From Candidatus Saccharimonadales bacterium (GTDB lineage: Bacteria; Patescibacteriota; Saccharimonadia; Saccharimonadales; JBBQAJ01), in assembly GCA_038206875.1 (NCBI GenBank), contig JBBRAK010000006.1, forward strand, positions 253-64,252: a stretch of 64,000 nt of DNA. Reading direction: 5' to 3'. The translations under genes and the position numbers were made by a program. Under the pieces are notes generated by a model that saw only the letters and a list, made by a program, of their open reading frames with translations, searched no databases and was not told the origin of the DNA. Of the stretch, positions 4,078-56,684 are shown piece by piece. Numbering within the stretch: position 1 is the stretch's first letter; each line of letters starts with the position of its first letter.

Positions 4078-5427
4078 ATGGATGAGCAGTTAGATGACCA
4101 GCCAGAGGTAAAACCGGATGTTTTGGAGCAGGCCAAAGCGGTTCTGGAAATGAACGACCAAGGCTCCTACACTGTACCGGCACCGGATTTATACCCCCAT
4201 CAATGGCTCTGGGACAGTTGTTTTATAGCGATAGGCCTGCGCCACATGGACATTGACCGCGCAAAAACAGAGATTCTGAGCTTATTACGTGGTCAATGGC
4301 ACAACGGTATGTTACCAAATGTGATTTTGTTGGGTAAGCGAAAATACCGACGAGACAGGGACATATGGCGGAGTTGGTCCAACCCCAATTCCCCCGACGA
4401 AGTGTCAACCAGTGGAATCACACAACCGCCTATGCTCGCGGAAGCTGTCGTAAGGGTGGGAGAAAGACTCAAAAAACCCGAACGTCGTAGCTGGTATAAG
4501 CAAACCTATCCGGCTCTACTGGCTCACCATAAGTGGCTATACGCCGAACGTGACCCTCACGACGAAGGATTAGTACTACAAATTCATCCATGGGAATCAG
4601 GACTGGATAATTCACCCCCCTGGATGAACGAACTTCACGAACATCAGCTGGCGGTCTGGGTAACCGTGGTTAAAAAACTCAAGGCAGGTTGGTTAATCAA
4701 CCTTTTTCGCCGGGATACTAAAATGATCCCAGCCGAAGAACGGCTTGATATTATCGACGCTCTGGCACTTTATAGCACCCAGCGGCGTTTACGCCGAAAA
4801 GCTTACGATATTGACAAAATACTTTCCCATTCACTCTTTGCTGTAGAAGACCTTAGCTTTAATTGTATATTTATTCGCGCCAATCAACATTTGCGTGAGA
4901 TTGCCAAGTTTCTAAATAAAGAACTGCCAGATGAATTACTAAAATCAATGACCAAAACAGAAAAAGCTCTTGAGCAACTTTGGGATCCATATTCTGGCCA
5001 ATACTACTCAAGAAATTTCGTCACACACAACCTGTTAAAAGAACCAACTATTGCCACCCTACTGCCTTTGTACGCAGGCACAATTAGTAAGACCAAGGCC
5101 GACCAGTTGGTCCGTTTGCTAGAAAACCAGCACGTTTTTGGCGCCCACTTCCCCGTGCCGAGCGTACCTATTAATTCTCCTTGGTTTCGGCACCACACAT
5201 ACTGGCAAGGTCCAACTTGGGTAAACACAAACTGGCTTGTCATTGATGGTCTCCGACGAATGGGCTACGAAGACCACGCAGTAGCCCTAACAGAATCAAC
5301 CCTAGACATGGTAAAACAAGCTGGATGCTATGAATATTTCAGTCCCGTGGACGGTTCCCCGGCAGGTGCACCAAACTTCTCCTGGACCGCGGCTTTAACT
5401 ATTGATTTACTGAAAAACAGTGCCTAG
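4078..5427 (+). CDS. six-hairpin (alpha/alpha)6 glycoside hydrolase, GH63 / mannosylglycerate-glucosylglycerate hydrolase-like
   Basis: 449 aa with HQWLWDSCFIAIGL, GITQPPMLAEAV, HPWESGLDNSPPW, YWQGPTWVNTNWL and a C-terminal NFSWTAAL. This pattern is typical of GH63/GH37-like enzymes. Confidence 0.6.
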   Translation: MDEQLDDQPEVKPDVLEQAKAVLEMNDQGSYTVPAPDLYPHQWLWDSCFIAIGLRHMDIDRAKTEILSLLRGQWHNGMLPNVILLGKRKYRRDRDIWRSWSNPNSPDEVSTSGITQPPMLAEAVVRVGERLKKPERRSWYKQTYPALLAHHKWLYAERDPHDEGLVLQIHPWESGLDNSPPWMNELHEHQLAVWVTVVKKLKAGWLINLFRRDTKMIPAEERLDIIDALALYSTQRRLRRKAYDIDKILSHSLFAVEDLSFNCIFIRANQHLREIAKFLNKELPDELLKSMTKTEKALEQLWDPYSGQYYSRNFVTHNLLKEPTIATLLPLYAGTISKTKADQLVRLLENQHVFGAHFPVPSVPINSPWFRHHTYWQGPTWVNTNWLVIDGLRRMGYEDHAVALTESTLDMVKQAGCYEYFSPVDGSPAGAPNFSWTAALTIDLLKNSA

Positions 5428-19408: not shown

Positions 19409-19482
19409 TGGGGATTGGCCAAGTGGTAAGGCAGTGGATTCTGGTTCCACCATCGGGGGTTCGAATCCCTCATCCCCAGCCA
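19409..19482 (+). tRNA. tRNA-Gln (anticodon CTG), CCA encoded
   Basis: Hand-folded cloverleaf. Acceptor TGGGGAT/ATCCCCA (U1:A72), anticodon arm GTGGA-TTCTGGT-TCCAC, T arm GGGGG-TTCGAAT-CCCTC, discriminator G, CCA. Confidence 0.9.
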
Positions 19483-26816: not shown

Positions 26817-27403
26817 ACAAAAGCCCTCAAATAAACTATAGTAAAGATAAATATCCATATTATGTCTAGGAAGTGCCAGAACAGGCTGAGCATTGCCAAT
26901 TTTCGAACCAACGGAGCGTTAAGTCCCCTTTTCATGACATAAACCATTGTGGTTGCCATCCATAATAGCCCAGATGTTATATGCAATCCATGCGTGCCAA
27001 CCAGCACAAAGAATGACGACAGAAAGGCATTTGTCTGCAAAGTGTGACCCGCGTGAATAAACTCGGCAAACTCTTTCATTTCCAGACTTAAAAACGCTAG
27101 CCCGAGTGCAAAAGTAATACCAAGCCATATGAGAGTCTGGATTTTGTTGCCACGGCGTACAGCTAACATGGCGATTCCGACCGTAAAACTACTGGTTAGA
27201 AGAATCAATGTTTCGGTTAGAGCTAGCGGTAAGCTGAAAAGATCATATCCAGTTTCACCACCAAGTGTGCTGTTATGCAACACGGAATACACAGCGAACA
27301 GGACGGAAAACATCAAAAGGTCTGTCATCAAATATATCCAGAATCCAAACATTGCCCTATCTGTGGCTTCAGCTTCGTGATCTGTTTTTACCATTTTTGC
27401 CAC
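26813..27403 (-). CDS. cyoC: quinol oxidase subunit III
   Basis: 196 aa with 5 TM helices. Heme-copper oxidase subunit III pattern including LFWHFLDIIWIFIFT. Confidence 0.85.
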   Translation of the reverse strand: MAKMVKTDHEAEATDRAMFGFWIYLMTDLLMFSVLFAVYSVLHNSTLGGETGYDLFSLPLALTETLILLTSSFTVGIAMLAVRRGNKIQTLIWLGITFALGLAFLSLEMKEFAEFIHAGHTLQTNAFLSSFFVLVGTHGLHITSGLLWMATTMVYVMKRGLNAPLVRKLAMLSLFWHFLDIIWIFIFTIVYLRAFV

Positions 27404-29478
27404 CGTTTGTTTTTAATTACATCAAGCCCAAACTTCAGCACAACTGTGATTAACTCAGCTAGCCCCATATCTTCATCTGAGCCAAGTTCAATATTAGTTT
27501 GTTTAGCCTTATCTTTTTTGAGCCGATCTTCTTCAAGTTTTTTCACTTCAGCGGCAGATATTATGTACTCAGGATGTTCGTCGTAACCTCGTCTAACAAA
27601 AACAATAAGAATGCCTACCATAGATACCACAGCCAGCCAGTTTATGTTCCAGACAAACGCAAAACCAACCAAAAAAGCGAAACCTGCAATAAAAATCCCA
27701 GCAGAAATATTTTTGGGAGTGTGAATATCTTCAAAAGCAGGTTTTGGGATTGCTGAGTGTTTAATTTCCCAAAAAGCATCCCGAGTTTTTACTTGCGGGA
27801 TAGTAGTGTAATTGTAAAACTGGGGGGGTGAAGCTGTAGACCACTCTAGGGACCGGCCATCCCAAGGGTCTCCAGTCGTGTCACGCAATCGATTTTTTTG
27901 GATAAAACTAGCCAAAATCTGAGCAATCTGCAACGCTACACCAACAGCAATAACTAGCCCCCCAATAAACATCATTATAAACAAAGGTTGCCATCCTGTT
28001 GAAGCATCGTAATGGTCAAGCCTCCTGGATGCCCCCATAAACCCTAAAACATACATTGGTATAAACGACATGCAAAATCCAATCATCCAACACCAAAATG
28101 CATACCTACCTATCCGCTCGTTGAGCTTGATACCAGTAAATTTTGGGAACCAGTACGACAGTGCGCAAAAGATACCGAACAGTACCCCCCCTATGACGGT
28201 TGAGTGAAAATGAGCTACAAGGAACAAACTATTGTGAAGCTGGAAATCGACTGGCGGAACAGCCAACATGACACCACTTATACCACCAATTGCAAAAACG
28301 GCAACAAACCCAAGAAACCATAACATTGGTGTATCGAACCGTATGCGTCCTTTGTGCATTGTGGCAATCCAGTTGAAAACAAGAACAGTTGTTGGGATTG
28401 CAATTAACATTGTCATAGCACCAAAAAAGGCATTTACGTTTGCGCCAGCACCCATTGTAAAAAAGTGATGCAACCACACAGAAAGCGCCAGTGTTGATAC
28501 GCCGATCATACCAAATACAGCCGATTTGTAGCTAGCAATTGGTTTGCGACTAAATGTTGAAACCACCTCAGAAAACACCCCAAAAGCAGGCAAAATTAAC
28601 ACATATACTTCCGGATGCCCCCACATCCAGATGAGATTGGTATACAACATTTGGTTACCCCCACCAAAAGATGTAAAGAAGTTTGCACCCAAATAACGAT
28701 CAAAAAATAGTAAAAATAGCGTTGCGGTCAGTAACGGGAAAACAGTGACCGCCATAATCATGCTACACAGTGAACCCCAGGTAAATAATGGCATTTTCAT
28801 TAGCTTCATCCCTGGCGCACGCATTTTCAAAATAGTCATTATAAAATTTATTGCTCCGAGAGTAGTTCCGATGCCAGAAATTTGTAGGCTCCATATCCAG
28901 TAATCCACCCCAACCCCTGGACTAAATGCCCTTTCAGAAAGCGGAGCAACCGCAAGCCAACCCGTTGCGGCGTATTCTCCACCAAAGAGGAAAAACATGT
29001 TTACCATCACAACACCTGCGACAAATAACCAAAAGCCCAAAGTATTCATAAACGGCGATGCCAAGTCACGCGCTCCAATCTGCAAGGGCACTATGTAATT
29101 TATGAGCCCGAAAACAAAAGCCATAGCAACAAAGAAAACCATAATATTTCCGTGGGCGGTAAAGATTTGTTGGAAGTGATTAGAAGATAAATAGCCATGC
29201 GAAGCGCCTGATGACATTGCTTGCTGGAGCCAGATCATAATTGCATCGAGTCCACCACGCAAGAGCATAAAACCGCCTACGATAAAGTACATAATTCCAA
29301 TTTTTTTTGGATCTACCGAAGTCAGCCACTCATTCCAAAGCCATTTCCACCTTTTCATTCGAGTAATCACTAAAATTGCGGTCAAGGCTAAAGTAATAAA
29401 TGCCAGTGATCCTCCAAGAGTGAACCACTCATGAGGAAGTGCATTCCAGTCTAGTTTGCCAAGTATAAATTCTTTCAT
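27388..29478 (-). CDS. cyoB: quinol oxidase subunit I (heme-copper oxidase)
   Basis: 696 aa with WMWGHPEVYVLILPAFG, WLHHFFTMG and VAHFHSTVIGG. Charged C-terminal extension. TAATG overlap with cyoA. Confidence 0.95.
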   Translation of the reverse strand: MKEFILGKLDWNALPHEWFTLGGSLAFITLALTAILVITRMKRWKWLWNEWLTSVDPKKIGIMYFIVGGFMLLRGGLDAIMIWLQQAMSSGASHGYLSSNHFQQIFTAHGNIMVFFVAMAFVFGLINYIVPLQIGARDLASPFMNTLGFWLFVAGVVMVNMFFLFGGEYAATGWLAVAPLSERAFSPGVGVDYWIWSLQISGIGTTLGAINFIMTILKMRAPGMKLMKMPLFTWGSLCSMIMAVTVFPLLTATLFLLFFDRYLGANFFTSFGGGNQMLYTNLIWMWGHPEVYVLILPAFGVFSEVVSTFSRKPIASYKSAVFGMIGVSTLALSVWLHHFFTMGAGANVNAFFGAMTMLIAIPTTVLVFNWIATMHKGRIRFDTPMLWFLGFVAVFAIGGISGVMLAVPPVDFQLHNSLFLVAHFHSTVIGGVLFGIFCALSYWFPKFTGIKLNERIGRYAFWCWMIGFCMSFIPMYVLGFMGASRRLDHYDASTGWQPLFIMMFIGGLVIAVGVALQIAQILASFIQKNRLRDTTGDPWDGRSLEWSTASPPQFYNYTTIPQVKTRDAFWEIKHSAIPKPAFEDIHTPKNISAGIFIAGFAFLVGFAFVWNINWLAVVSMVGILIVFVRRGYDEHPEYIISAAEVKKLEEDRLKKDKAKQTNIELGSDEDMGLAELITVVLKFGLDVIKNKRWQKW

Positions 29479-30383
29479 TAGTGATGCCCGTGGTCATTTG
29501 ATGACCCTAAATATTTACTTATAACTCTGTCGTAAAGGCTGTTGTCATATGCCGAGTAAAATACGACTGGGTTATATTCGCTTGGTTCTAACAATTTATC
29601 ATAGTTTGCAATATTCAATACTTCAGTTGATTGCCTCACATCTTGCACCCAAAGATCAAACTTTTCTGAACTACTAACACGTGTGGTAAATTTCATCCCC
29701 GCAAAACCGGAACCATTTATTTCGGGTGTACTACCCGGATAATCGCCGATAGTTTGAGAAATCAGGTTTAGCCTATTCACATGGCTTGTCATCGAATATA
29801 ATTGACCGCCAAGATTTGGTATCCAAAAAGAGCTCATGGGAGCTTCATCAGCAGTTAGCTCAAAAACTACGGGTGTGTCGACAGGTATTTGGACAAAGTT
29901 TACAGTAGCAATATTTTGCTCAGGATATATAAACAACCACTTCCAGCGCATAGATATAACTTGAATTACAATCGGCTTGGCATCTGATGCAATCGCTCGC
30001 TGAGGGATTAGTCTATGAGTAGCAGTCCACATAACAACACCAAGACCAAATATAATTACTGTTGGCAGACTCCACATAAATGAAACTAAATATTTACTTC
30101 GCGAGGTCTCTGATGTGTGCTTTAGTTTGGTGTTTGATTCCCTATATTTCCATGCCGTAAAATATACAATAAAAAGTGTTGGGACTGCTATTGCGAAAAG
30201 GATGACGAAGATAACCATCATCAAATGGAGCTGTTGTTGTGCTATTGCGCCCTTGGGGTTAAATAACGCAATGTTTTTCCCCAAAACAAAATATCTAATC
30301 AGTAAAAACAAGTCCGTCAGTGCCATAAATATCAACAGAGCTAGCCATCCTGAATGGAGCTTTTTTTTGCGTATTTTTACCAT
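29478..30383 (-). CDS. cyoA: quinol oxidase subunit II (no CuA site visible)
   Basis: 301 aa with two N-terminal TM helices and a cupredoxin domain. I see no CxExC/H CuA motif, which is consistent with a quinol-type rather than a cytochrome c-type oxidase. Confidence 0.85.
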   Translation of the reverse strand: MVKIRKKKLHSGWLALLIFMALTDLFLLIRYFVLGKNIALFNPKGAIAQQQLHLMMVIFVILFAIAVPTLFIVYFTAWKYRESNTKLKHTSETSRSKYLVSFMWSLPTVIIFGLGVVMWTATHRLIPQRAIASDAKPIVIQVISMRWKWLFIYPEQNIATVNFVQIPVDTPVVFELTADEAPMSSFWIPNLGGQLYSMTSHVNRLNLISQTIGDYPGSTPEINGSGFAGMKFTTRVSSSEKFDLWVQDVRQSTEVLNIANYDKLLEPSEYNPVVFYSAYDNSLYDRVISKYLGSSNDHGHH

Positions 30384-42972: not shown

Positions 42973-43998
42973 TTACAAATGCCTACGATACTTGCGAATA
43001 GTCTCTACGCCTAGATTTGGCAAGTATTTTGGCCAATTTAACACGAGGTCTCTGGCGTGTAGATATTCCACATCGCTACCCTTAAACCCACGCTTAAAGA
43101 CAGATACGCCGTAAAATCTATGGTTTGTCTGCTCAGGCAAGACTACGCCCCAGAAATTATAACGACCCATGCCACGGCTCTTGGCTTCTTTTATAGCTTC
43201 CCATTGTATGGCGTACGCGCCTGGCTCTTTTCGGCCCAGTTCGGTACTAGCACCATAGTGATAGGCAGCTTCTTGATTATAAAAAATTACAAAAGCCATA
43301 GCTATTAGTTTACCGTCGGCTGTTTCGGCACGATACAAAAGAGCCTTACCAGCTCCGCTAAATACTTTGAACTGTTCTTGCAGGAATTTTTTACCATAGG
43401 GCACAAAACCATGACGTTTAGCGGTCTGGAGTTGCAAGTCATAGAACTCATCAACTGCACTAGGAGTAGTCGTAGACCTGACAACAATACCACGTTTTTT
43501 GGCTTGCTTAAGCTCATATCGGGTATTTTTTCTAAACTCGTCACGCAACTCATTTTCAGTTTTGGTGATGTCTAGCTGTGAAGTCAACTCTGCATGCAAG
43601 TGCATTTTAGCCCGCCGAAAGCCAAAGGAGGTAAACATCTTGCTGTTGTCCAGGTTTTCAACTATTTGTGGTCGTACCCGTACAAATACACAGCTTTCTT
43701 TGATACCGAGCGTTTTCATATCATCAATAACTGCCTTGACTAGTAATTTGTCTTGCCAATCAATAATTGGACCGCCTGGCACAGTCAGGTATCGGGCTCG
43801 ACGAGCCGGCTCCACTATGGCAAGCATTACGCCGACCAAAGCCCCATCCCTGAAGAAGCCCTGTCTAAACACTTGACGCCCAATCAAAATATTAAATTCA
43901 CCCCAAAGCCATGATTGCAAAAAGTTTGCTTCTGGGTGGGTTTGAATAAATCCCTCCCACAAACTAGCGTCGTTGATTGGTTCTATTGTGATAGCCAT
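42973..43998 (-). CDS. FemAB-family aminoacyl-tRNA-dependent peptidoglycan peptidyltransferase
   Basis: Start set to the ATG at 43998 (MAITIEPINDASLWEGF). FLQSWLWGEF and YHYGAST are typical of the FemX/FemAB/MurM family. 16-nt overlap with the DegT gene. Confidence 0.8.
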   Translation of the reverse strand: MAITIEPINDASLWEGFIQTHPEANFLQSWLWGEFNILIGRQVFRQGFFRDGALVGVMLAIVEPARRARYLTVPGGPIIDWQDKLLVKAVIDDMKTLGIKESCVFVRVRPQIVENLDNSKMFTSFGFRRAKMHLHAELTSQLDITKTENELRDEFRKNTRYELKQAKKRGIVVRSTTTPSAVDEFYDLQLQTAKRHGFVPYGKKFLQEQFKVFSGAGKALLYRAETADGKLIAMAFVIFYNQEAAYHYGASTELGRKEPGAYAIQWEAIKEAKSRGMGRYNFWGVVLPEQTNHRFYGVSVFKRGFKGSDVEYLHARDLVLNWPKYLPNLGVETIRKYRRHL

Positions 43999-45158
43999 TG
44001 GTTTACCTTTTCTGCCAGTGCTTGGGCCTGCTCGACGTTGATATTTATATGTGTTGGAAGATTTACCATGTGTTCGGCCACATATTCTGCTTCTGGACAT
44101 TGTCCCAGATGATATTCTGTATGTTCTTGATATCGTTTTGGAGCAATAACTGCATCATACCAGGGTTGTGCAATATAAATGCCTGCTTGTTTTAGGTGTG
44201 CTTCTAGCTTGCGTGGCTCCTCGACTAATAGCGGAAATCGAATATACAATGAGCCTTCTAGATGTGGTATTTGAACTTTTTGAGGAAGTGACTCTCTGTA
44301 TATTGTTGCAATTTTTTGTCGATGTTCAATATCTTCTGGCAAAGAATTGATTGCTCTTTGGGCAAGCTTTGCCTGACGATTTGGCAAATTTCGTATAATT
44401 TTTGGGTCACCGGACAACTGGTTTGGTAGAAATTTTAAAATCTTAAGAAGCCTTAGCCATATTTTTCCTATCCAAAAACTATGTGTCTTTCTAATTATAA
44501 GTGTATTAAGCGGGTACCAATAAGCCTGCAGTTTTTGCCACATACTCACCGACACATAATGCGGTTCAAATGATTTTTTTTGAAAAAGAATAGCTGCACC
44601 ACCCGAAACTGCATCGATAATTTTGTCCTGGCTGAACGAAAAGGCAGCTCCATTTCCAACCGTACCGGCTGTTTCACCAGTTGGATATATAAGGCCAGCG
44701 CTATGTGCCAAGTCTTCTACCAGAAACAGCTTTTGGTCTAAACAAAAACGCCGTATGCCTTCCATGGGAGACGGCATGCCAAGAGTATTTTGAATAATCA
44801 CGGCCCTGATGGTTGGCTCTTTTTTGACAGCTGATTTGAGCATTTCTGTTGTAAAGTTAAGGTCGTTTTTTGATATGTCCAGCAGATATGGTTTTAGCCC
44901 AGCCGCAATTACTGCCTGATAGACCACATAGCATGTATAGCCGTTAATGGCTACGTGACTGCCTGCAGGCAATTGTAGTTGTTGCAAGATTAGTGTAATA
45001 GCCTCGCGACATTTGAAAGTTAAAAATACTTCGTCAGATTTGTAGTCTTTCTGTAGATGTGTTTCTAGTTTTTCGGCGCTGTTTGATTGCACTGGTAGTA
45101 GTGAGCGCCACGTCTGTCTGGCTGAATAGTTTGATCCCAAGGAATTAAAAATACTCAT
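43983..45158 (-). CDS. DegT/DnrJ/EryC1/StrS family PLP-dependent aminotransferase
   Basis: 391 aa. VEDLAHSAG and the candidate PLP-lysine block SFSQDKIIDAVSGGA. 4-nt overlap with the upstream hydrolase gene. Confidence 0.75.
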   Translation of the reverse strand: MSIFNSLGSNYSARQTWRSLLPVQSNSAEKLETHLQKDYKSDEVFLTFKCREAITLILQQLQLPAGSHVAINGYTCYVVYQAVIAAGLKPYLLDISKNDLNFTTEMLKSAVKKEPTIRAVIIQNTLGMPSPMEGIRRFCLDQKLFLVEDLAHSAGLIYPTGETAGTVGNGAAFSFSQDKIIDAVSGGAAILFQKKSFEPHYVSVSMWQKLQAYWYPLNTLIIRKTHSFWIGKIWLRLLKILKFLPNQLSGDPKIIRNLPNRQAKLAQRAINSLPEDIEHRQKIATIYRESLPQKVQIPHLEGSLYIRFPLLVEEPRKLEAHLKQAGIYIAQPWYDAVIAPKRYQEHTEYHLGQCPEAEYVAEHMVNLPTHININVEQAQALAEKVNQWLSQ

Positions 45159-45853
45159 TTGCCTTCTACCTTGAGCGACTTTACTATAATTTCAAACACT
45201 TCGTGGGGGTGACTGGAGTGTGGCGAGTGACCAGCGCCCTTAATAATCGTAAGCGGAGCGTTATGCAGTTTTATTTGAAGCTTATAGGCATCTGCAAGAG
45301 GCGTGGACTTGTCTTGTTGTCCCCAGATTAACTGTACTGGAACACGGACATTAGCAAGATTGAGTATTTTATCTGCGGATAACATATTTTTCATGGTTTC
45401 TTTCATATGCACTGGAGCCTGGTAGTAGTCCTTGGAGCCGATTACTTTGTAAAAAATCTTTTTTACTCCTGGAATTACAGTTAAGGGTTTGCCAATTTTT
45501 GCAAGAATTTTATATATACCTCGTTTTGTTTTACTCATAGAACCACCGTGATATATGCCCGCACTATCTATTAAGATTAGCTCGCCTAGAGTGTCTGGAT
45601 ATCTACTCGCAAAGTTGAGCGCTATGCGTCCTCCGTTGGAGTGACCAATAACTATTGGCTTGGTTTCCCCTCGCAGTTCCTTTCTCAGCCACGTTACGTA
45701 GCCATTAATGTCCCAAGCCTTGTCACTATCCGTTGTCAGCCCCGGTACTTGCAACTGTTTAACTATTACACCCTCTGTTCGTAACAATTCGCATAACTCT
45801 GTCCACATCGTCAGTGTGTAAGTCCAGCCATGGATTATAAATACTTTTTTCAC
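45155..45853 (-). CDS. alpha/beta hydrolase
   Basis: Nucleophile elbow GHSNGG and a C-terminal GAGHSPH. I prefer the GTG at 45853 (VKKVFIIHGW), which forms a TAGTG overlap with the Mur-ligase stop. The ORF extends to 45892. Confidence 0.7.
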   Translation of the reverse strand: MKKVFIIHGWTYTLTMWTELCELLRTEGVIVKQLQVPGLTTDSDKAWDINGYVTWLRKELRGETKPIVIGHSNGGRIALNFASRYPDTLGELILIDSAGIYHGGSMSKTKRGIYKILAKIGKPLTVIPGVKKIFYKVIGSKDYYQAPVHMKETMKNMLSADKILNLANVRVPVQLIWGQQDKSTPLADAYKLQIKLHNAPLTIIKGAGHSPHSSHPHEVFEIIVKSLKVEGK

Positions 45854-47133
45854 TATTTTCCCAGCCCCCAAGTGGCCCGCTTCTTGTCCCACAACTTGCC
45901 ACGACGCACTAGTTGCTCCGCGTCAGCCCTACGTGCTAATAATGGCTCAATAACTCCCTCCAAGTAGCGAACCCCCTTAAACAAAACAGTTTCTCCTCCT
46001 TTAAGATTTTCTAACAAATACTCTAAAACCTGTTTTGGTTCAGTAAAAACAACCAGCTTAGTGTTTTTATCAAGGCCTTTTGCGAGTAACGGCGCTGCGT
46101 GCTTAGCTATACGTGGACCGATCAAAATAATACGATCCAGTCTGACGCCTAGGAATGCCTGCGGAATCTTCTTGTGCTCAGCTTCCTCTTCATCACCTTG
46201 TTCTAGCAAGTCCCCTACAACCGCCCATTTGTGTTCTCCAGGAAAGTCGTTAAATACCTGTAACACCGAACGTAAGCTGTCTATATTTGAATTATTATAT
46301 GTGCTATCAAAAAGAGTAGTGCCTCGAATACCCTCAAAAGTATTACTGCGTCCTGGTGGCATGCGAAAATTTACGTATGAATAATCTGGCTGTTTACCAA
46401 GGTGTCTAACCAAGGCGTCAGCCATAGCAACTTGGTAAAAATTGTCTCGAGGTAGTAGCGCTGGAATCTGATATGTCAAATCGCCAAAACTAAATTTGGT
46501 CATATCTTTGGTGAGGCTATATTCTTTTAAATCACCGATGTTTACATATTTCACATCCGCCTGAACTCGTTTGGACTCTTCGCGCATAAAAGAGTTATCA
46601 CCATCCAAGACAACCAAATCAGTCGTAGCGGCTGCCATGTTACCGTATTCATGCGCTACTGCCTCGCGAACAGTTTTGAAATTACCACTTCTAACCATGC
46701 TATCGTACCCAGCTGTATGTGAATTCAAAGCACTCACCCATAACGTTACTGCTGGATGCAAGAGTTGAGCCAAAAACTGTGCTTCAAAAGGACGATCTGC
46801 ATCGACTTCGACCACATATAAACTTTGCTTATAAGGGCGCTTAAGTAAAGCCAACGGAGCCAGCACGAACAGACCAAACCACTCTGCCCGAGATTGTTGA
46901 ATTGCCTGTAAGCCAAGGATATCAAAGGGTATACCAAATGAACTATTAGCATGGTGGGAATAGTGCGCTGATTCGCCAAGTTGCGCTTCCACAAGATGAA
47001 GCAAAGTAGTCTTACCCGCAGAGCCAGTGATTACAATCACCTTAGGACCCCAGCGTTTTAGTTGAATTGTGGCCCAGAATCTAAAGTAACGTGCAATCAA
47101 AAAATAGACACGCTTTTTTACTGTTTGGAACAT
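45853..47133 (-). CDS. Mur ligase family protein (MurF/MurT-like, short N-terminus)
   Basis: 426 aa. ATP-binding loop VIVITGSAGKTTLL followed by Mur-ligase middle and C-terminal domain features. First gene of a four-gene overlapping operon. Confidence 0.7.
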   Translation of the reverse strand: MFQTVKKRVYFLIARYFRFWATIQLKRWGPKVIVITGSAGKTTLLHLVEAQLGESAHYSHHANSSFGIPFDILGLQAIQQSRAEWFGLFVLAPLALLKRPYKQSLYVVEVDADRPFEAQFLAQLLHPAVTLWVSALNSHTAGYDSMVRSGNFKTVREAVAHEYGNMAAATTDLVVLDGDNSFMREESKRVQADVKYVNIGDLKEYSLTKDMTKFSFGDLTYQIPALLPRDNFYQVAMADALVRHLGKQPDYSYVNFRMPPGRSNTFEGIRGTTLFDSTYNNSNIDSLRSVLQVFNDFPGEHKWAVVGDLLEQGDEEEAEHKKIPQAFLGVRLDRIILIGPRIAKHAAPLLAKGLDKNTKLVVFTEPKQVLEYLLENLKGGETVLFKGVRYLEGVIEPLLARRADAEQLVRRGKLWDKKRATWGLGK

Positions 47134-47217
47134 CCCTCTATTTTACCCTAAATACTACTCTATAAGTAAAAATCGTTCTATACATGACGACTTCAATTTG
47201 TTAGCATACTTAGCGAT

Positions 47218-47280
47218 GGGGCACGGGCCTTGGGTCCATCCGCTCACGCGGTCGTAGGTCACGCCTACAGTGCTCCACCA
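47218..47280 (+). ncRNA. tRNA-Ala-like mini-cloverleaf without an anticodon loop (G3:U70, discriminator A, encoded CCA)
   Basis: Hand fold: acceptor GGGGCAC/GTGCTCC with G3:T70, then ACCA. Three internal hairpins are GGGCC-TTG-GGTCC, CCGC-TCAC-GCGG and GTAGG-TCACG-CCTAC. GC-rich island in an AT-rich spacer. A possible -10 CATACT sits at 47205-47210. Confidence 0.4.
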
Positions 47281-47342
47281 AAAATAGCGTTTAAGAATAC
47301 AACCTCTCTGGGCAATAGGGGTTGTATTTAATTCCCGAAGGA

Positions 47343-48293
47343 CTATTGGATTTGACGAAGTCGTGTTTGGAGCTCATCTACACCGATTGATGTCGCTGGC
47401 AATTCTATCTGACTCCAAACACCATAGGCGGTTAGATTTTCGGTTCTAACTGAATTTTCGTAAATTATTTTTGTAAGTTGTCCTGACCAAACGTCTATTT
47501 CAAATGTAAATTTCAAAGGAACACTATCGGCATATTGCGCTGGATCTATCTGTTCCAGTTGAGTAATCCCGACTGTTTTTGAAAAATTCTTAAGCATCGA
47601 GACATAGGATTCTGGCTTCACCGTAACTTCATATGAGTAAACTGGACGACCGTTTGTAATTTGGCGTTTTGTTGCGCTCGAGTCGTACTTGAACACAGTG
47701 TCTGTTTTGATTTGTTTAATTAGCTCTTTACGCTTGGCAACTGGCAGGTTTGCTATTGGCACTACGCCGAGTAGAGTTTGATTATATAGCTGAGCGCCGT
47801 TACCATCCTTACTTGCAATGTCAGATTTACCCCATAGCCCTAAGATCGAAGAAAAATCATATACTCCACCAGAAGGGGTTTTTTGAGTTGTAGATATATC
47901 ATTGTAGCGTACAAAGTCATACTCTGGCGATGCAATGCTTTCTGTTGTGATTACTGTATCTAAATTCTCCCCCTGACTTAGTATGCTCGTAGAGTGCACC
48001 CTCTGATCTGGTCGCGTAACCAATGTCGATGCTTGTTCAAGGTTTTGTGAATCTCCTTTTTGAATTGCTATTTTGGAAACCGATTGACTAGAAAGGCTAT
48101 TTGTTATCATCCTATTAAAAACATTTGTTGGGCTACTATATACGGTCTTGAACCAAAGTACTGAACTGGCGATTAAAATAATAATTCCTGCAAAAATTAA
48201 GGAACGTATAGTAGTAATGTGGAGTTTGATAGTTTTAAACATTGTTTTATTGTAACAGAAAAATGGTGGAGCATAATGATGATGTCGGAACAT
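47343..48293 (-). CDS. hypothetical membrane-anchored protein
   Basis: 316-aa ORF with an alternative start at 48242 (MFKTIKLH). One TM helix (IFAGIIILIASSVLWF), then a soluble domain with no recognised motif. Confidence 0.5.
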   Translation of the reverse strand: MFRHHHYAPPFFCYNKTMFKTIKLHITTIRSLIFAGIIILIASSVLWFKTVYSSPTNVFNRMITNSLSSQSVSKIAIQKGDSQNLEQASTLVTRPDQRVHSTSILSQGENLDTVITTESIASPEYDFVRYNDISTTQKTPSGGVYDFSSILGLWGKSDIASKDGNGAQLYNQTLLGVVPIANLPVAKRKELIKQIKTDTVFKYDSSATKRQITNGRPVYSYEVTVKPESYVSMLKNFSKTVGITQLEQIDPAQYADSVPLKFTFEIDVWSGQLTKIIYENSVRTENLTAYGVWSQIELPATSIGVDELQTRLRQIQ

Positions 48294-48295
48294 AT

Positions 48296-49051
48296 CTACT
48301 TCGACAGGAATAATATCACTGCTATCGTATAACCTAGTATAACCACACCAGTCCTAAGCATCTGTCTATTTACAAAACGTACCAGATGAGAACCAGTATA
48401 TCCACCGATTACAGCACCCAACGCCATTATTGGAACAATCTGCCAATGCACAATACCACTTAGGGAAAAATATATGATTGCCACAAAATTAACAATTAGA
48501 GAAATGACGTTTTTTAAACCTATGTTTTGATACATATCCTTAATCCCCAGGACTGATAGACAACCAAGGAGTAGAATTCCAATACCAGCACCAAAATAGG
48601 ATCCGTATATAGCAACAATAAGTATAAGTAGCCCGACAAACATTACTTTACGTTTTGGTTGATCTAAATGTATTTTTTTGAAAAGCCTATTAACTGGTTC
48701 TTGGAACTGTAATAAAGATGCGCCAATAATTATCAAAATTGGCGCAATCCAATCAAACACACTGCTTGGCGTGTGGGTTAATATAAAGCTACCTACGATA
48801 GCCCCTACAACCGCTGGGATTATCAAAATTTTTATCCAGGTTTTACTTTTTATTATTTCTTTTTTATATCCTGGAAGACTTGATACAATTCCTGGCCATA
48901 AGACAACTGTAGACGTAGCATTTGCGACGATAGAGTTACTCCCCAGTGCCAATAGGACGGGATATGTTAAAAAAGTGCCACCCCCTGGTATTGCGTTCAT
49001 GATGGCTCCAACAAAAGCAGCCAAGAAAGCTATTAAGATTTCTGGTGACAT
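48296..49051 (-). CDS. TauE/SafE (TSUP) family anion exporter
   Basis: 251 aa with 7-8 TM helices. Repeated GxGGG-type motifs (NAIPGGGTFLTYP, YFGAGIGILLLG) are typical of the TSUP family. Confidence 0.75.
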   Translation of the reverse strand: MSPEILIAFLAAFVGAIMNAIPGGGTFLTYPVLLALGSNSIVANATSTVVLWPGIVSSLPGYKKEIIKSKTWIKILIIPAVVGAIVGSFILTHTPSSVFDWIAPILIIIGASLLQFQEPVNRLFKKIHLDQPKRKVMFVGLLILIVAIYGSYFGAGIGILLLGCLSVLGIKDMYQNIGLKNVISLIVNFVAIIYFSLSGIVHWQIVPIMALGAVIGGYTGSHLVRFVNRQMLRTGVVILGYTIAVILFLSK

Positions 49052-49107: not shown

Positions 49108-49125
49108 TGGTGGAGCATATCGGAT
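49108..49125 (-). repeat. exact 18-nt copy of the 3' end of tRNA-Ala (T-stem 3' strand to CCA)
   Basis: TGGTGGAGCATATCGGAT at 49108-49125 is identical to 49274-49291. It is a direct repeat, 166 bp apart, downstream of the tRNA on the minus strand. Confidence 0.9.
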
Positions 49126-49273: not shown

Positions 49274-49350
49274 TGGTGGAGCATATCGGATTCGAACCGA
49301 TGACCTCTTCCATGCCATGGAAGCGCGCTAGCCAACTGCGCCAATGCCCC
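49274..49350 (-). tRNA. tRNA-Ala (anticodon GGC), CCA encoded
   Basis: Hand fold: acceptor GGGGCAT/ATGCTCC with G3:U70, D arm GCGC-AGTTGGCTA-GCGC, anticodon arm CTTCC-ATGGCAT-GGAAG, T arm ATCGG-TTCGAAT-CCGAT, ACCA. Confidence 0.9.
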
Positions 49351-56518: not shown

Positions 56519-56606
56519 TGGTGCGCGAGGTGGGACTTGAACCCACAAGGCTTATTCAGCCAACGGATTTTAAGTCCGTCGCGTATACCAATTCCGCCAC
56601 TCGCGC
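56519..56606 (-). tRNA. tRNA-Leu (anticodon TAA), type II, CCA encoded
   Basis: Hand fold: acceptor GCGCGAG/CTCGCGC, anticodon arm ACGGA-CTTAAAA-TCCGT, long variable arm, T arm GTGGG-TTCAAGT-CCCAC, ACCA. Confidence 0.9.
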
Positions 56607-56610
56607 ATCC

Positions 56611-56684
56611 TGGAGGTGCGTACGGGTAATGCTCCCGTCTACTGGGTTTTGCAGACCCATGCCTAACTTCTCGGCCAACGCACC
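56611..56684 (-). tRNA. tRNA-Cys (anticodon GCA) with non-canonical T-loop and D-loop, CCA encoded
   Basis: Hand fold: acceptor GGTGCGT/ACGCACC, D arm GCC(G)-AGAAGTT-(A)GGC, anticodon arm TGGGT-CTGCAAA-ACCCA, T arm ACGGG-AGCATTA-CCCGT, discriminator T, CCA. It lies 4 nt upstream of tRNA-Leu. Confidence 0.75.

Follow-up and report, generated by a model that had tools for sequence, protein, structure and literature searches.

The locus and the mini RNA gene

The DNA analysed here, referred to as the window, is a stretch of 64,000 nt from contig JBBRAK010000006.1 of a Candidatus Saccharimonadales bacterium. At positions 47218-47280 it carries a small gene for a structured, tRNA-Ala-like RNA, here called the mini RNA, in the spacer upstream of an operon that begins with a murF-like Mur ligase gene and ends with a gene for a FemX-like transferase. 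The parts of the RNA gene, in the order in which their sequences follow one another, are:

47218-47280, plus strand: mini tRNA-Ala-like RNA gene, form A four-way junction (sequence, fold, covariance-model match and covariation)
47218-47224 paired with 47270-47276, plus strand: acceptor stem, GGGGCAC/GTGCTCC (fold)
47225-47237, plus strand: hairpin 1, GGGCC-TTG-GGTCC, followed by AT (fold)
47240-47251, plus strand: hairpin 2, CCGC-TCAC-GCGG, followed by TC (fold)
47254-47268, plus strand: hairpin 3 (T-stem-like), GTAGG-TCACG-CCTAC (fold)
47269, plus strand: unpaired A
47277-47280, plus strand: A73 and CCA, following the 3' strand of the acceptor stem

The acceptor stem is 7 bp long, contains a G3:U70 wobble pair and leads into a free ACCA end of which the CCA is encoded. 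Three stubby hairpins, with loops of 3, 4 and 5 nt, and a single unpaired A make up the remainder. A previous sequence-only reading of this DNA had folded the element by hand, and ViennaRNA returned the same acceptor stem, hairpins, unpaired A and CCA. The four-way junction is the minimum-energy fold (-31.3 kcal/mol, 80 % of the ensemble), and the plus strand folds much better than expected (z = -3.55, with 0 of 200 shuffles folding equally well), while the fold of the minus strand is unremarkable (z = -0.65). The GC-rich island in an AT-rich spacer reported in that reading is also present (GC content 0.58-0.62 versus 0.27-0.32 in the surrounding spacer), and the spacer is not covered by any open reading frame (ORF). 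The element begins 84 nt from the start codon of the Mur ligase gene (47133) and is divergent to it, close to the 85 nt estimated previously, and the last gene of the operon does belong to the FemAB family (Pfam). No second copy of the mini RNA was found elsewhere within the 64-kb window.

A family of homologous RNAs in two forms

Homologues were gathered from the contigs of relatives of the adjacent Mur ligase (protein-anchored loci) and by RNA-pattern scans. This yielded 13 distinct homologous sequences in Saccharibacteria contigs, each of which folds into the family shape on its own. All eight of the looked-up proteins that are at least 50 % identical to the window ligase have a mini RNA in that neighbourhood. 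These eight proteins correspond to 13 retrieved loci (L001-L009 and L141-L144), two of which, L142 and L144, end before the RNA site. The RNA is in the spacer directly upstream of the ligase gene for seven of the eight and one gene farther upstream for the other. The pattern scan of metagenome contigs, which listed at least 120 loci, most of them chance matches, added L038, L041, L042, L048, L056, L060 and L071. The scan of genome contigs added L012 and also returned L011, which is the same as L007. As the pattern used for genome contigs (...CCTRYRRTKGCTCCACCA) fits only the short form of the RNA described below, taxonomic breadth was poorly sampled.

MAFFT misaligned the hairpins, and the family was aligned with a covariance model built from three gap-free sequences, to which the window element scores 93.8 bits. 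An alignment of this kind leans towards structure, and single-sequence folds and RNAalifold were also relied on; RNAalifold independently predicts the same family structure. In the covariance-model alignment of the 13 sequences, all 226 of 226 pair cells form standard pairs. As a control, the partner columns were slid by 1-3 positions, and pairing fell to 39-59 %. Compensatory changes in homologous spacers had been named as a check in the sequence-only reading, and they are clear: 9 of the 21 pairs have changes on both sides, where column shuffles give 2.4, and not one of the 500 shuffles has as many. The changes are present in all four helices, and the hairpin variants include GGGCC/GGUCC, GGAUC/GAUCC, GAGCC/GGCUC and GGACGU/ACGUCC (hairpin 1), CCGC/GCGG, CCCGAC/GUCGGG and CCUG/CAGG (hairpin 2), and GUAGG/CCUAC and GCAGG/CCUGC (hairpin 3). 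The invariant or recurrent G:U pairs of the family would be C-A mismatches if read on the opposite strand, and the length differences between members are not multiples of three.

Two forms can be distinguished. Form A (59-65 nt) is the four-way junction and is found in the window, L001-L004, L006, L008 and L048. Form B (36-38 nt) is a minihelix, found in L007, L012, L038, L041 and L042, that reads GGGGCAU GC GYAGG-loop-CCURC A AUUGCUCC ACCA and includes a bulged U. Form B is without hairpins 1 and 2 and keeps the acceptor stem and hairpin 3, which indicates that these two parts are all that is needed. The hairpin loops are 3-6 nt long and free to vary in sequence (GAAA, GCAA, UUCG, CUUAAA and others). 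Hairpin 2 has 4 pairs, or 6 in one member, and a variable loop of 3-4 nt (TCAC, GCAA, TTCG or CTTG). Conservation is seen in the acceptor stem, at the ACCA end, in a few junction bases and in the three loop-proximal pairs of hairpin 3. The latter (A-U, G-C and G-C) are invariant and reminiscent of a T stem.

A new structured RNA family, missed by standard tRNA finders and by Rfam, is therefore well supported, whatever its function. It has so far been found only in Saccharibacteria (Patescibacteria), names taken from the titles and source names of the records, and keeps just the amino-acid-accepting end of tRNA-Ala.

Several recurrent matches were rejected. A 45-nt match, GGGGCAC-GC-GGTGGCGAA..TTCGCCACC-AA-GTGCTCC-ACCA, seen in L014, L045, L052, L075, L083, L084, L087, L095 and L131, was considered as a third form and ruled out as coding sequence, as it is GC-rich, has long flanks that are conserved in a coding-like manner and does not have the operon genes nearby. 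A 63-nt metagenome match, GGGGCATGCCGAAGTTGCGC...GGTGCCCCACCA (L018, L029, L049, L059, L081, L088, L090, L099, L100 and L125), has C70, substitutions scattered along its length and no family fold, and is probably a conserved protein-coding segment and not a member of the family. L010 (Stenotrophomonas), returned by the scan of genome contigs, is a chance match inside a GC-rich region. The scan of viral contigs gave four matches, all due to chance, and a BLAST search of the region against phage genomes found no match.

Transcription signals

Comparison of the family members revealed a promoter-like site upstream of the RNA gene, and an inverted repeat follows it:

47179-47207, plus strand: promoter-like site of the RNA gene (family comparison)
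47179-47184, plus strand: -35-like TATACA, separated by a 17-nt spacer from the -10
47202-47207, plus strand: TG-extended -10, TAGCAT, ending 10 nt before G1
47296-47335, plus strand: terminator-like hairpin, arms 47296-47307 and 47317-47328, then TTTAATT (inverted repeat)

A TAnnnT box ending 10-12 nt upstream of G1 is found in 12 of the 13 members, 11 of these 12 with the TG extension, and eight members have a 5/6 match to the -35 at 17-nt spacing (seven TTTACA and one TGGACA). A generic promoter scan made no call at 47179-47207 because its thresholds were stricter. The terminator-like hairpin folds at -15.4 kcal/mol and, lying between the RNA gene and the convergent gene ending at 47343, could serve both. 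Most homologues have either a hairpin and T-run or a T-run immediately 3' of the CCA, and this arrangement of promoter and terminator accompanies the RNA in either orientation.

All four tRNA genes in the window (19409-19482, 49274-49350, 56519-56606 and 56611-56684) encode their 3' CCA, and three of them have T at position -1. The base at -1 is also T in all 13 members of the family. With CCA encoded and T at -1 in both, the mini RNA gene is built like a tRNA gene of this genome. Altogether, the mini RNA is almost certainly a real, independently transcribed structured RNA.

Alanine identity elements and relationship to tRNA

The tRNA-Ala gene of the window served as comparator:

49274-49350, minus strand: tRNA-Ala(GGC) (ARAGORN and Rfam)

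Its acceptor stem, GGGGCAU/AUGCUCC followed by ACCA, has six of the seven pairs in common with the mini RNA. The shared sequence at the tRNA-Ala 3' end noticed in the sequence-only reading is real and amounts to an 11-nt identity, TGCTCCACCAA.

In bacteria, the alanine identity set consists of A73, G2-C71, G3.U70 and G4-C69, plus G20 (PMC9976931). In the mini RNA family, G1-C72, G2-C71, G3:U70, G4-C69, A73 and the encoded CCA are invariant (13/13), and the earlier view of the element as a mimic of the tRNA-Ala acceptor holds in that all of the acceptor-stem alanine identity elements are present. G20, a minor determinant in the D loop, is absent, as the mini RNA has no D loop, though minihelices without G20 are still charged (PMC2175331). 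The G:U pair at position 70 was found in 13 of 13 members although the metagenome pattern permitted C70. In contrast, A73, G2-C71 and G4-C69 were fixed by the pattern in pattern-derived members, but are still invariant in the protein-anchored loci, where nothing forced them. In the protein-anchored loci the mini RNA acceptor is always GGGGCA(C/U), whereas that of the genuine tRNA-Ala genes there takes several forms (GGGGCAU, GGGGAUA, GGGGCUA and GGGGUCG). The mini RNA is thus under the tighter constraint and is not a copy of the local tRNA. It is likely to be alanylated.

The mini RNA is not a tRNA or a transfer-messenger RNA (tmRNA), as the defining loops are missing and the detectors are silent. 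Like canonical tRNAs, all 13 members have a 7-bp acceptor stem, a discriminator base and a 3' CCA. However, there is no D arm with D loop, no T arm with a 7-nt T loop, no GG or TTCNA motif and no anticodon arm with a 7-nt loop (the loop of hairpin 2 is 3-4 nt, and this hairpin is missing in form B). Without an anticodon or an elbow formed by D and T loops, the mini RNA cannot decode on the ribosome, as had been claimed from the sequence. A tmRNA would have a T arm with T loop, pseudoknots and a tag reading frame, none of which is found, and 36-65 nt is too small; the ARAGORN tmRNA search and the Rfam tmRNA families gave no match. Running ARAGORN and Rfam on the spacer was another check that had been named beforehand, and neither gave a tRNA, tmRNA or other match. 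ARAGORN found four ordinary tRNAs elsewhere in the window and none at the element, and Rfam 15 had no match to the element at gathering scores or at E<=10, including with the tRNA model (RF00005).

If hairpin 3 is mapped on a T stem, which is an assumption, the weak A-U pair falls at the 51-63-like position and is invariant. Read in this way, and using a published table of T-stem energies for EF-Tu (PMC3239215), hairpin 3 is about 0.7 kcal/mol weaker for EF-Tu than the T stem of the local tRNA-Ala. On this mapping, the A-U pair predicts weaker binding of the mini RNA by EF-Tu.

The neighbouring operon and its linkage to the mini RNA

The genes flanking the mini RNA gene are:

47343-48293, minus strand: hyp316, hydrophobic N-terminal segment predicted to span the membrane (no match in Pfam or NCBIfam)
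45853-47133, minus strand: MurF-like Mur ligase, first gene of the operon (Pfam Mur_ligase_C; matches to MurF in the PDB)
45155-45892, minus strand: alpha/beta hydrolase, second gene (Pfam Abhydrolase_1/6; conserved in all related loci)
43983-45158, minus strand: DegT/DnrJ/EryC1-type pyridoxal phosphate-dependent aminotransferase, third gene (NCBIfam matches all under the cut-off)
42973-44100, minus strand: FemX-like aminoacyl-tRNA-dependent transferase of the FemAB family, last gene (Pfam FemAB, 5.3e-37)

Every member of the RNA family, including those found by RNA pattern only, adjoins an operon of this type (murF-like, hydrolase, aminotransferase and FemX-like). The gap between the RNA and the murF-like gene is 61-138 nt, except in L048/L141 where it is 1.26 kb. 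Five members, including that in the window, are divergent to the ligase gene and eight are co-oriented. Inversions and insertions notwithstanding, the linkage holds over 45-100 % MurF identity. The genes are usually ordered hyp316, RNA, murF-like. Apart from the operon, the one constant neighbour of the mini RNA throughout the clade is hyp316, though extra genes are found between hyp316 and the RNA in L004, L006 and L008. A class I/II aminotransferase gene on the opposite strand lies between the RNA and the murF-like gene in L141 (3830-4930, minus strand), and also in L048 and L143; in no other lineage does a gene part the RNA from the operon.

The MurF-like ligase scores 115 bits with the NCBIfam murF model, under the cut-off of 288.6. 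In L145, the operon goes on with an Asp/Glu racemase gene (Asp_Glu_race), murD and another Mur ligase gene, which places it in peptidoglycan precursor synthesis. A -10-like GGTAAAATA box is found 6 nt before the ATG of the window murF-like gene (47134-47150, minus strand). The same box, 5-7 nt before the start codon, is present in L002-L004, L006-L008, L012 and L139, the last of which has no RNA nearby, and this suggests a promoter yielding a leaderless or nearly leaderless operon mRNA.

The FemX-like protein has PDB matches to Staphylococcus aureus FemX and FemA and to FemX of Weissella viridescens (FemX_Wv). It aligns with FemX_Wv over residues 50-326, with its SVFKRGF on V-F304-K305. It thus has both the FemAB fold and, in the alignment, the catalytic Phe-Lys motif of FemX_Wv, to which K305 belongs. 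The insert of about 66 residues found in S. aureus FemX is missing, and in this the protein resembles the short FemX type acting on UDP-N-acetylmuramyl-pentapeptide (UDP-MurNAc-pentapeptide). The longest ORF (375 aa) shares 118 nt with the aminotransferase gene upstream of it. Gene calls for homologues give 337-348 aa, the alignments set in near residue 36, and the true start is probably downstream of that of the longest ORF.

Other features of the window and of related loci

Downstream of the tRNA-Ala(GGC) gene there are exact direct repeats of its 3' end, one of 18 nt (49108-49125, minus strand) and one of 13 nt (48263-48275, minus strand). Between them is an insertion of about 1 kb with a TauE-family gene (48296-49051) and a well-folding stretch of 148 nt; the 176-nt segment containing this stretch has a z of -2.96, and Rfam had no match to the 148-nt stretch. 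In L001 there is no such insertion, and the hyp316 gene comes directly after the tRNA. The insertion therefore resembles what is left, without an integrase, of an element that entered at the tRNA 3' end. Translation of hyp316 probably starts at the Met that is residue 18, and this Met lies downstream of the 13-nt repeat.

Elsewhere in the window, 27388-30383 (minus strand) includes a haem-copper oxidase subunit I (COX1) gene and a gene for a protein with a COX aromatic-rich motif. In L139, a GC-rich stretch of about 120 nt (4870-4990, plus strand; identical in L140) lies in the spacer upstream of the murF-like gene. Its fold has a modest z of -1.69 and it has no Rfam match.

Proposed function and alternative explanations

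We propose that alanyl-tRNA synthetase (AlaRS) charges the mini RNA and that the FemX-like transferase then uses it away from the ribosome. The transcript would begin with a few extra nucleotides ahead of G1, which would then be removed, probably by RNase P. AlaRS would recognise the acceptor-stem identity set and attach alanine. The charged RNA, unable to decode, could serve as an off-ribosome alanine donor, and its most likely user would be the neighbouring FemX-like transferase, acting on the peptidoglycan precursor made by the MurF-like ligase. There is a precedent in vitro, where synthetic tRNA-Ala minihelices, a 24-nt microhelix and even the bare acceptor duplex all work in a coupled AlaRS-FemX_Wv assay, and FemX_Wv reads C71 and C72 (PMC2175331, PMC2655667). 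Both of these bases are present in the mini RNA. For the complete chain we would put the probability at roughly 0.5.

Some observations weigh against it. The members found by pattern were forced to carry the ends GGGGCAYG...TGCYCCACCA, and invariance of the acceptor is unbiased only for the protein-anchored loci. In L137, L139 and L145 (46-47 % MurF identity), neither the covariance model, run without filters, nor a generic scan for 7-bp stems of any kind with NCCA behind them found a mini RNA within the 5-8 kb of retrieved flank. These three operons imply that the FemX-like enzyme needs no adjacent copy of the RNA and that ordinary Ala-tRNA-Ala might suffice. As the hyp316, RNA, murF-like synteny is clade-wide, the proximity of RNA and operon may be inherited and not functional. 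Finally, the best NCBIfam FemX score of the FemX-like protein is 61 bits against a cut-off of 500. The sequence-only reading is supported in part, and its suggestion of a dedicated alanyl carrier is still the explanation that fits best. The invariant linkage to the operon and the minihelix precedent (PMC2175331) favour it, and the three related operons without RNA in the 5-8 kb flank, together with a linkage that may be inherited synteny, do not.

The strongest alternative, though we consider it rather unlikely, is that AlaRS charges or binds the mini RNA but that the RNA serves something other than FemX. The RNA might serve another enzyme that recognises the acceptor end, for alanylation of lipids or proteins; it might sense or buffer alanine or AlaRS activity beside murF, whose ligase consumes D-Ala-D-Ala; or it might be a decoy for toxins that attack the acceptor end of tRNA-Ala. 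The identity elements and the conservation that speak for the FemX chain speak for this alternative too, and it would accommodate the operons of the same type without RNA in the retrieved flank. The RNA and murF promoters, divergent or in tandem within 61-138 nt, would also be well placed for co-regulation. However, no candidate for an alternative enzyme adjoins the RNA in the retrieved loci, hyp316 has no family match, and nothing at the loci points to a toxin system.

It is considerably less likely that the mini RNA is a structured small RNA with no role in aminoacylation, such as a protein-binding or regulatory RNA, and that its tRNA-Ala-like ends are a remnant of its origin from a tRNA-Ala gene. 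Conservation of the hairpin 3 stem, with its three invariant pairs, and of the junction bases could reflect a partner unrelated to AlaRS. Yet the strongest constraint, stronger than in the real tRNA-Ala genes, falls exactly on the AlaRS determinants and the single-stranded ACCA, and form B discards everything but the acceptor and one hairpin. Nor does helix stability alone readily account for a G:U pair in 13 of 13 members where the pattern allowed G-C.

A decayed tRNA-Ala pseudogene or an attachment site (att) scar of an element integrated in tRNA-Ala, which the sequence-only reading had listed as the mundane alternative, is very improbable. The mini RNA does share TGCTCCACCAA with the tRNA-Ala(GGC) gene 2 kb away, and the window holds real att-type repeats of the tRNA 3' end at 49108-49125 and 48263-48275. 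But these real scars are exact copies of the 3' end, in the orientation of the tRNA and without a pairing 5' strand, whereas the mini RNA is on the other strand, with a complementary 5' strand, its own promoter and terminator, and compensatory changes in four helices. Its acceptor is more conserved than that of tRNA-Ala, the Rfam tRNA model has no match at E<=10, homologues occur down to 45 % identity of the neighbouring protein, and their divergence excludes recent horizontal copies of one sequence. Together, the covariation, the separate transcription signals and the acceptor conservation refute this explanation.

A cis-acting leader (riboswitch or T-box-like) controlling the murF-like operon would suit the 8 of 13 members that are co-oriented with murF, seven of them with their 3' end 61-125 nt ahead of the start codon and often a terminator in the gap, and the eighth (L048/L141) 1.26 kb away through an inserted gene, but it is for practical purposes excluded by the five members, including that in the window, on the opposite strand, by the gene intervening in L141 and by the -10-like box that murF-like has of its own in most RNA-bearing loci and in L139 without RNA, and there was no Rfam match to a cis-regulatory family.

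Returning to the proposal of an alanine carrier for the FemX-like enzyme, the mini RNA would represent a new class of cellular RNA, a genome-encoded, anticodon-less aminoacyl carrier, and we put this forward tentatively. A search of full-text literature found no description of a natural anticodon-less acceptor-stem RNA, either in Saccharibacteria or beside Fem genes. If the proposal is correct, no natural aminoacyl carrier smaller than the 36-nt form would be known. Charging and use in the way proposed would mean that cells evolve a minimal carrier relying only on the acceptor-stem ('operational') code, which to our knowledge has until now been a laboratory and origin-of-translation concept. 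It would also be a second and more radical split of cell-wall aminoacyl pools from translation, after the staphylococcal tRNA-Gly, and would add to the almost unknown cell-envelope biochemistry of Saccharibacteria (Patescibacteria).

Comparison with known systems

FemX of W. viridescens is a UDP-MurNAc-pentapeptide:L-alanine transferase. The FemX-like protein is similar to it in belonging to the FemAB family, in having homologues of about 340 aa, in lacking the staphylococcal insert and in the aligned F304-K305, and its gene is in an operon with that for a MurF-like ligase, the product of which is the substrate of FemX_Wv. However, the two are only distantly related (E about 1e-11; NCBIfam 61 bits versus the 500 cut-off).

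The tRNA-like domain of tmRNA, which does not decode, has G3:U70 and CCA and is a substrate of AlaRS; tmRNA acts on the ribosome together with SmpB. The mini RNA shares the tRNA-Ala acceptor identity without decoding, but the T arm with T loop, the analogue of the D loop, the pseudoknots and the tag reading frame of tmRNA are all missing.

The non-proteinogenic tRNA-Gly species of staphylococci are donors for FemX, FemA and FemB. They are full cloverleaf tRNAs with anticodons and are found by tRNA finders. The likeness is in the proposed logic only, namely a dedicated carrier, a normal synthetase and a Fem-family user outside translation, to which, if hairpin 3 is read as a T stem, a helix predicted to be weak for EF-Tu may be added. 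Unlike these tRNAs, the mini RNA has no anticodon, D or T loops, can be only 36 nt long, and escapes both ARAGORN and the Rfam tRNA model.

The closest design is that of the synthetic tRNA-Ala minihelices and microhelices reportedly described by Francklyn and Schimmel in 1989. An acceptor with G3:U70, A73 and CCA stacked on one hairpin is common to both, and form B is essentially this design. Synthetic minihelices of this kind serve as substrates of AlaRS and then of FemX_Wv in vitro (PMC2175331). Form A differs from them in its two extra stub hairpins, and both forms have unpaired nucleotides at the junction of acceptor and hairpin 3. While the minihelices are laboratory constructs, the mini RNA is encoded in the genome, preceded by a promoter-like site and conserved in evolution.

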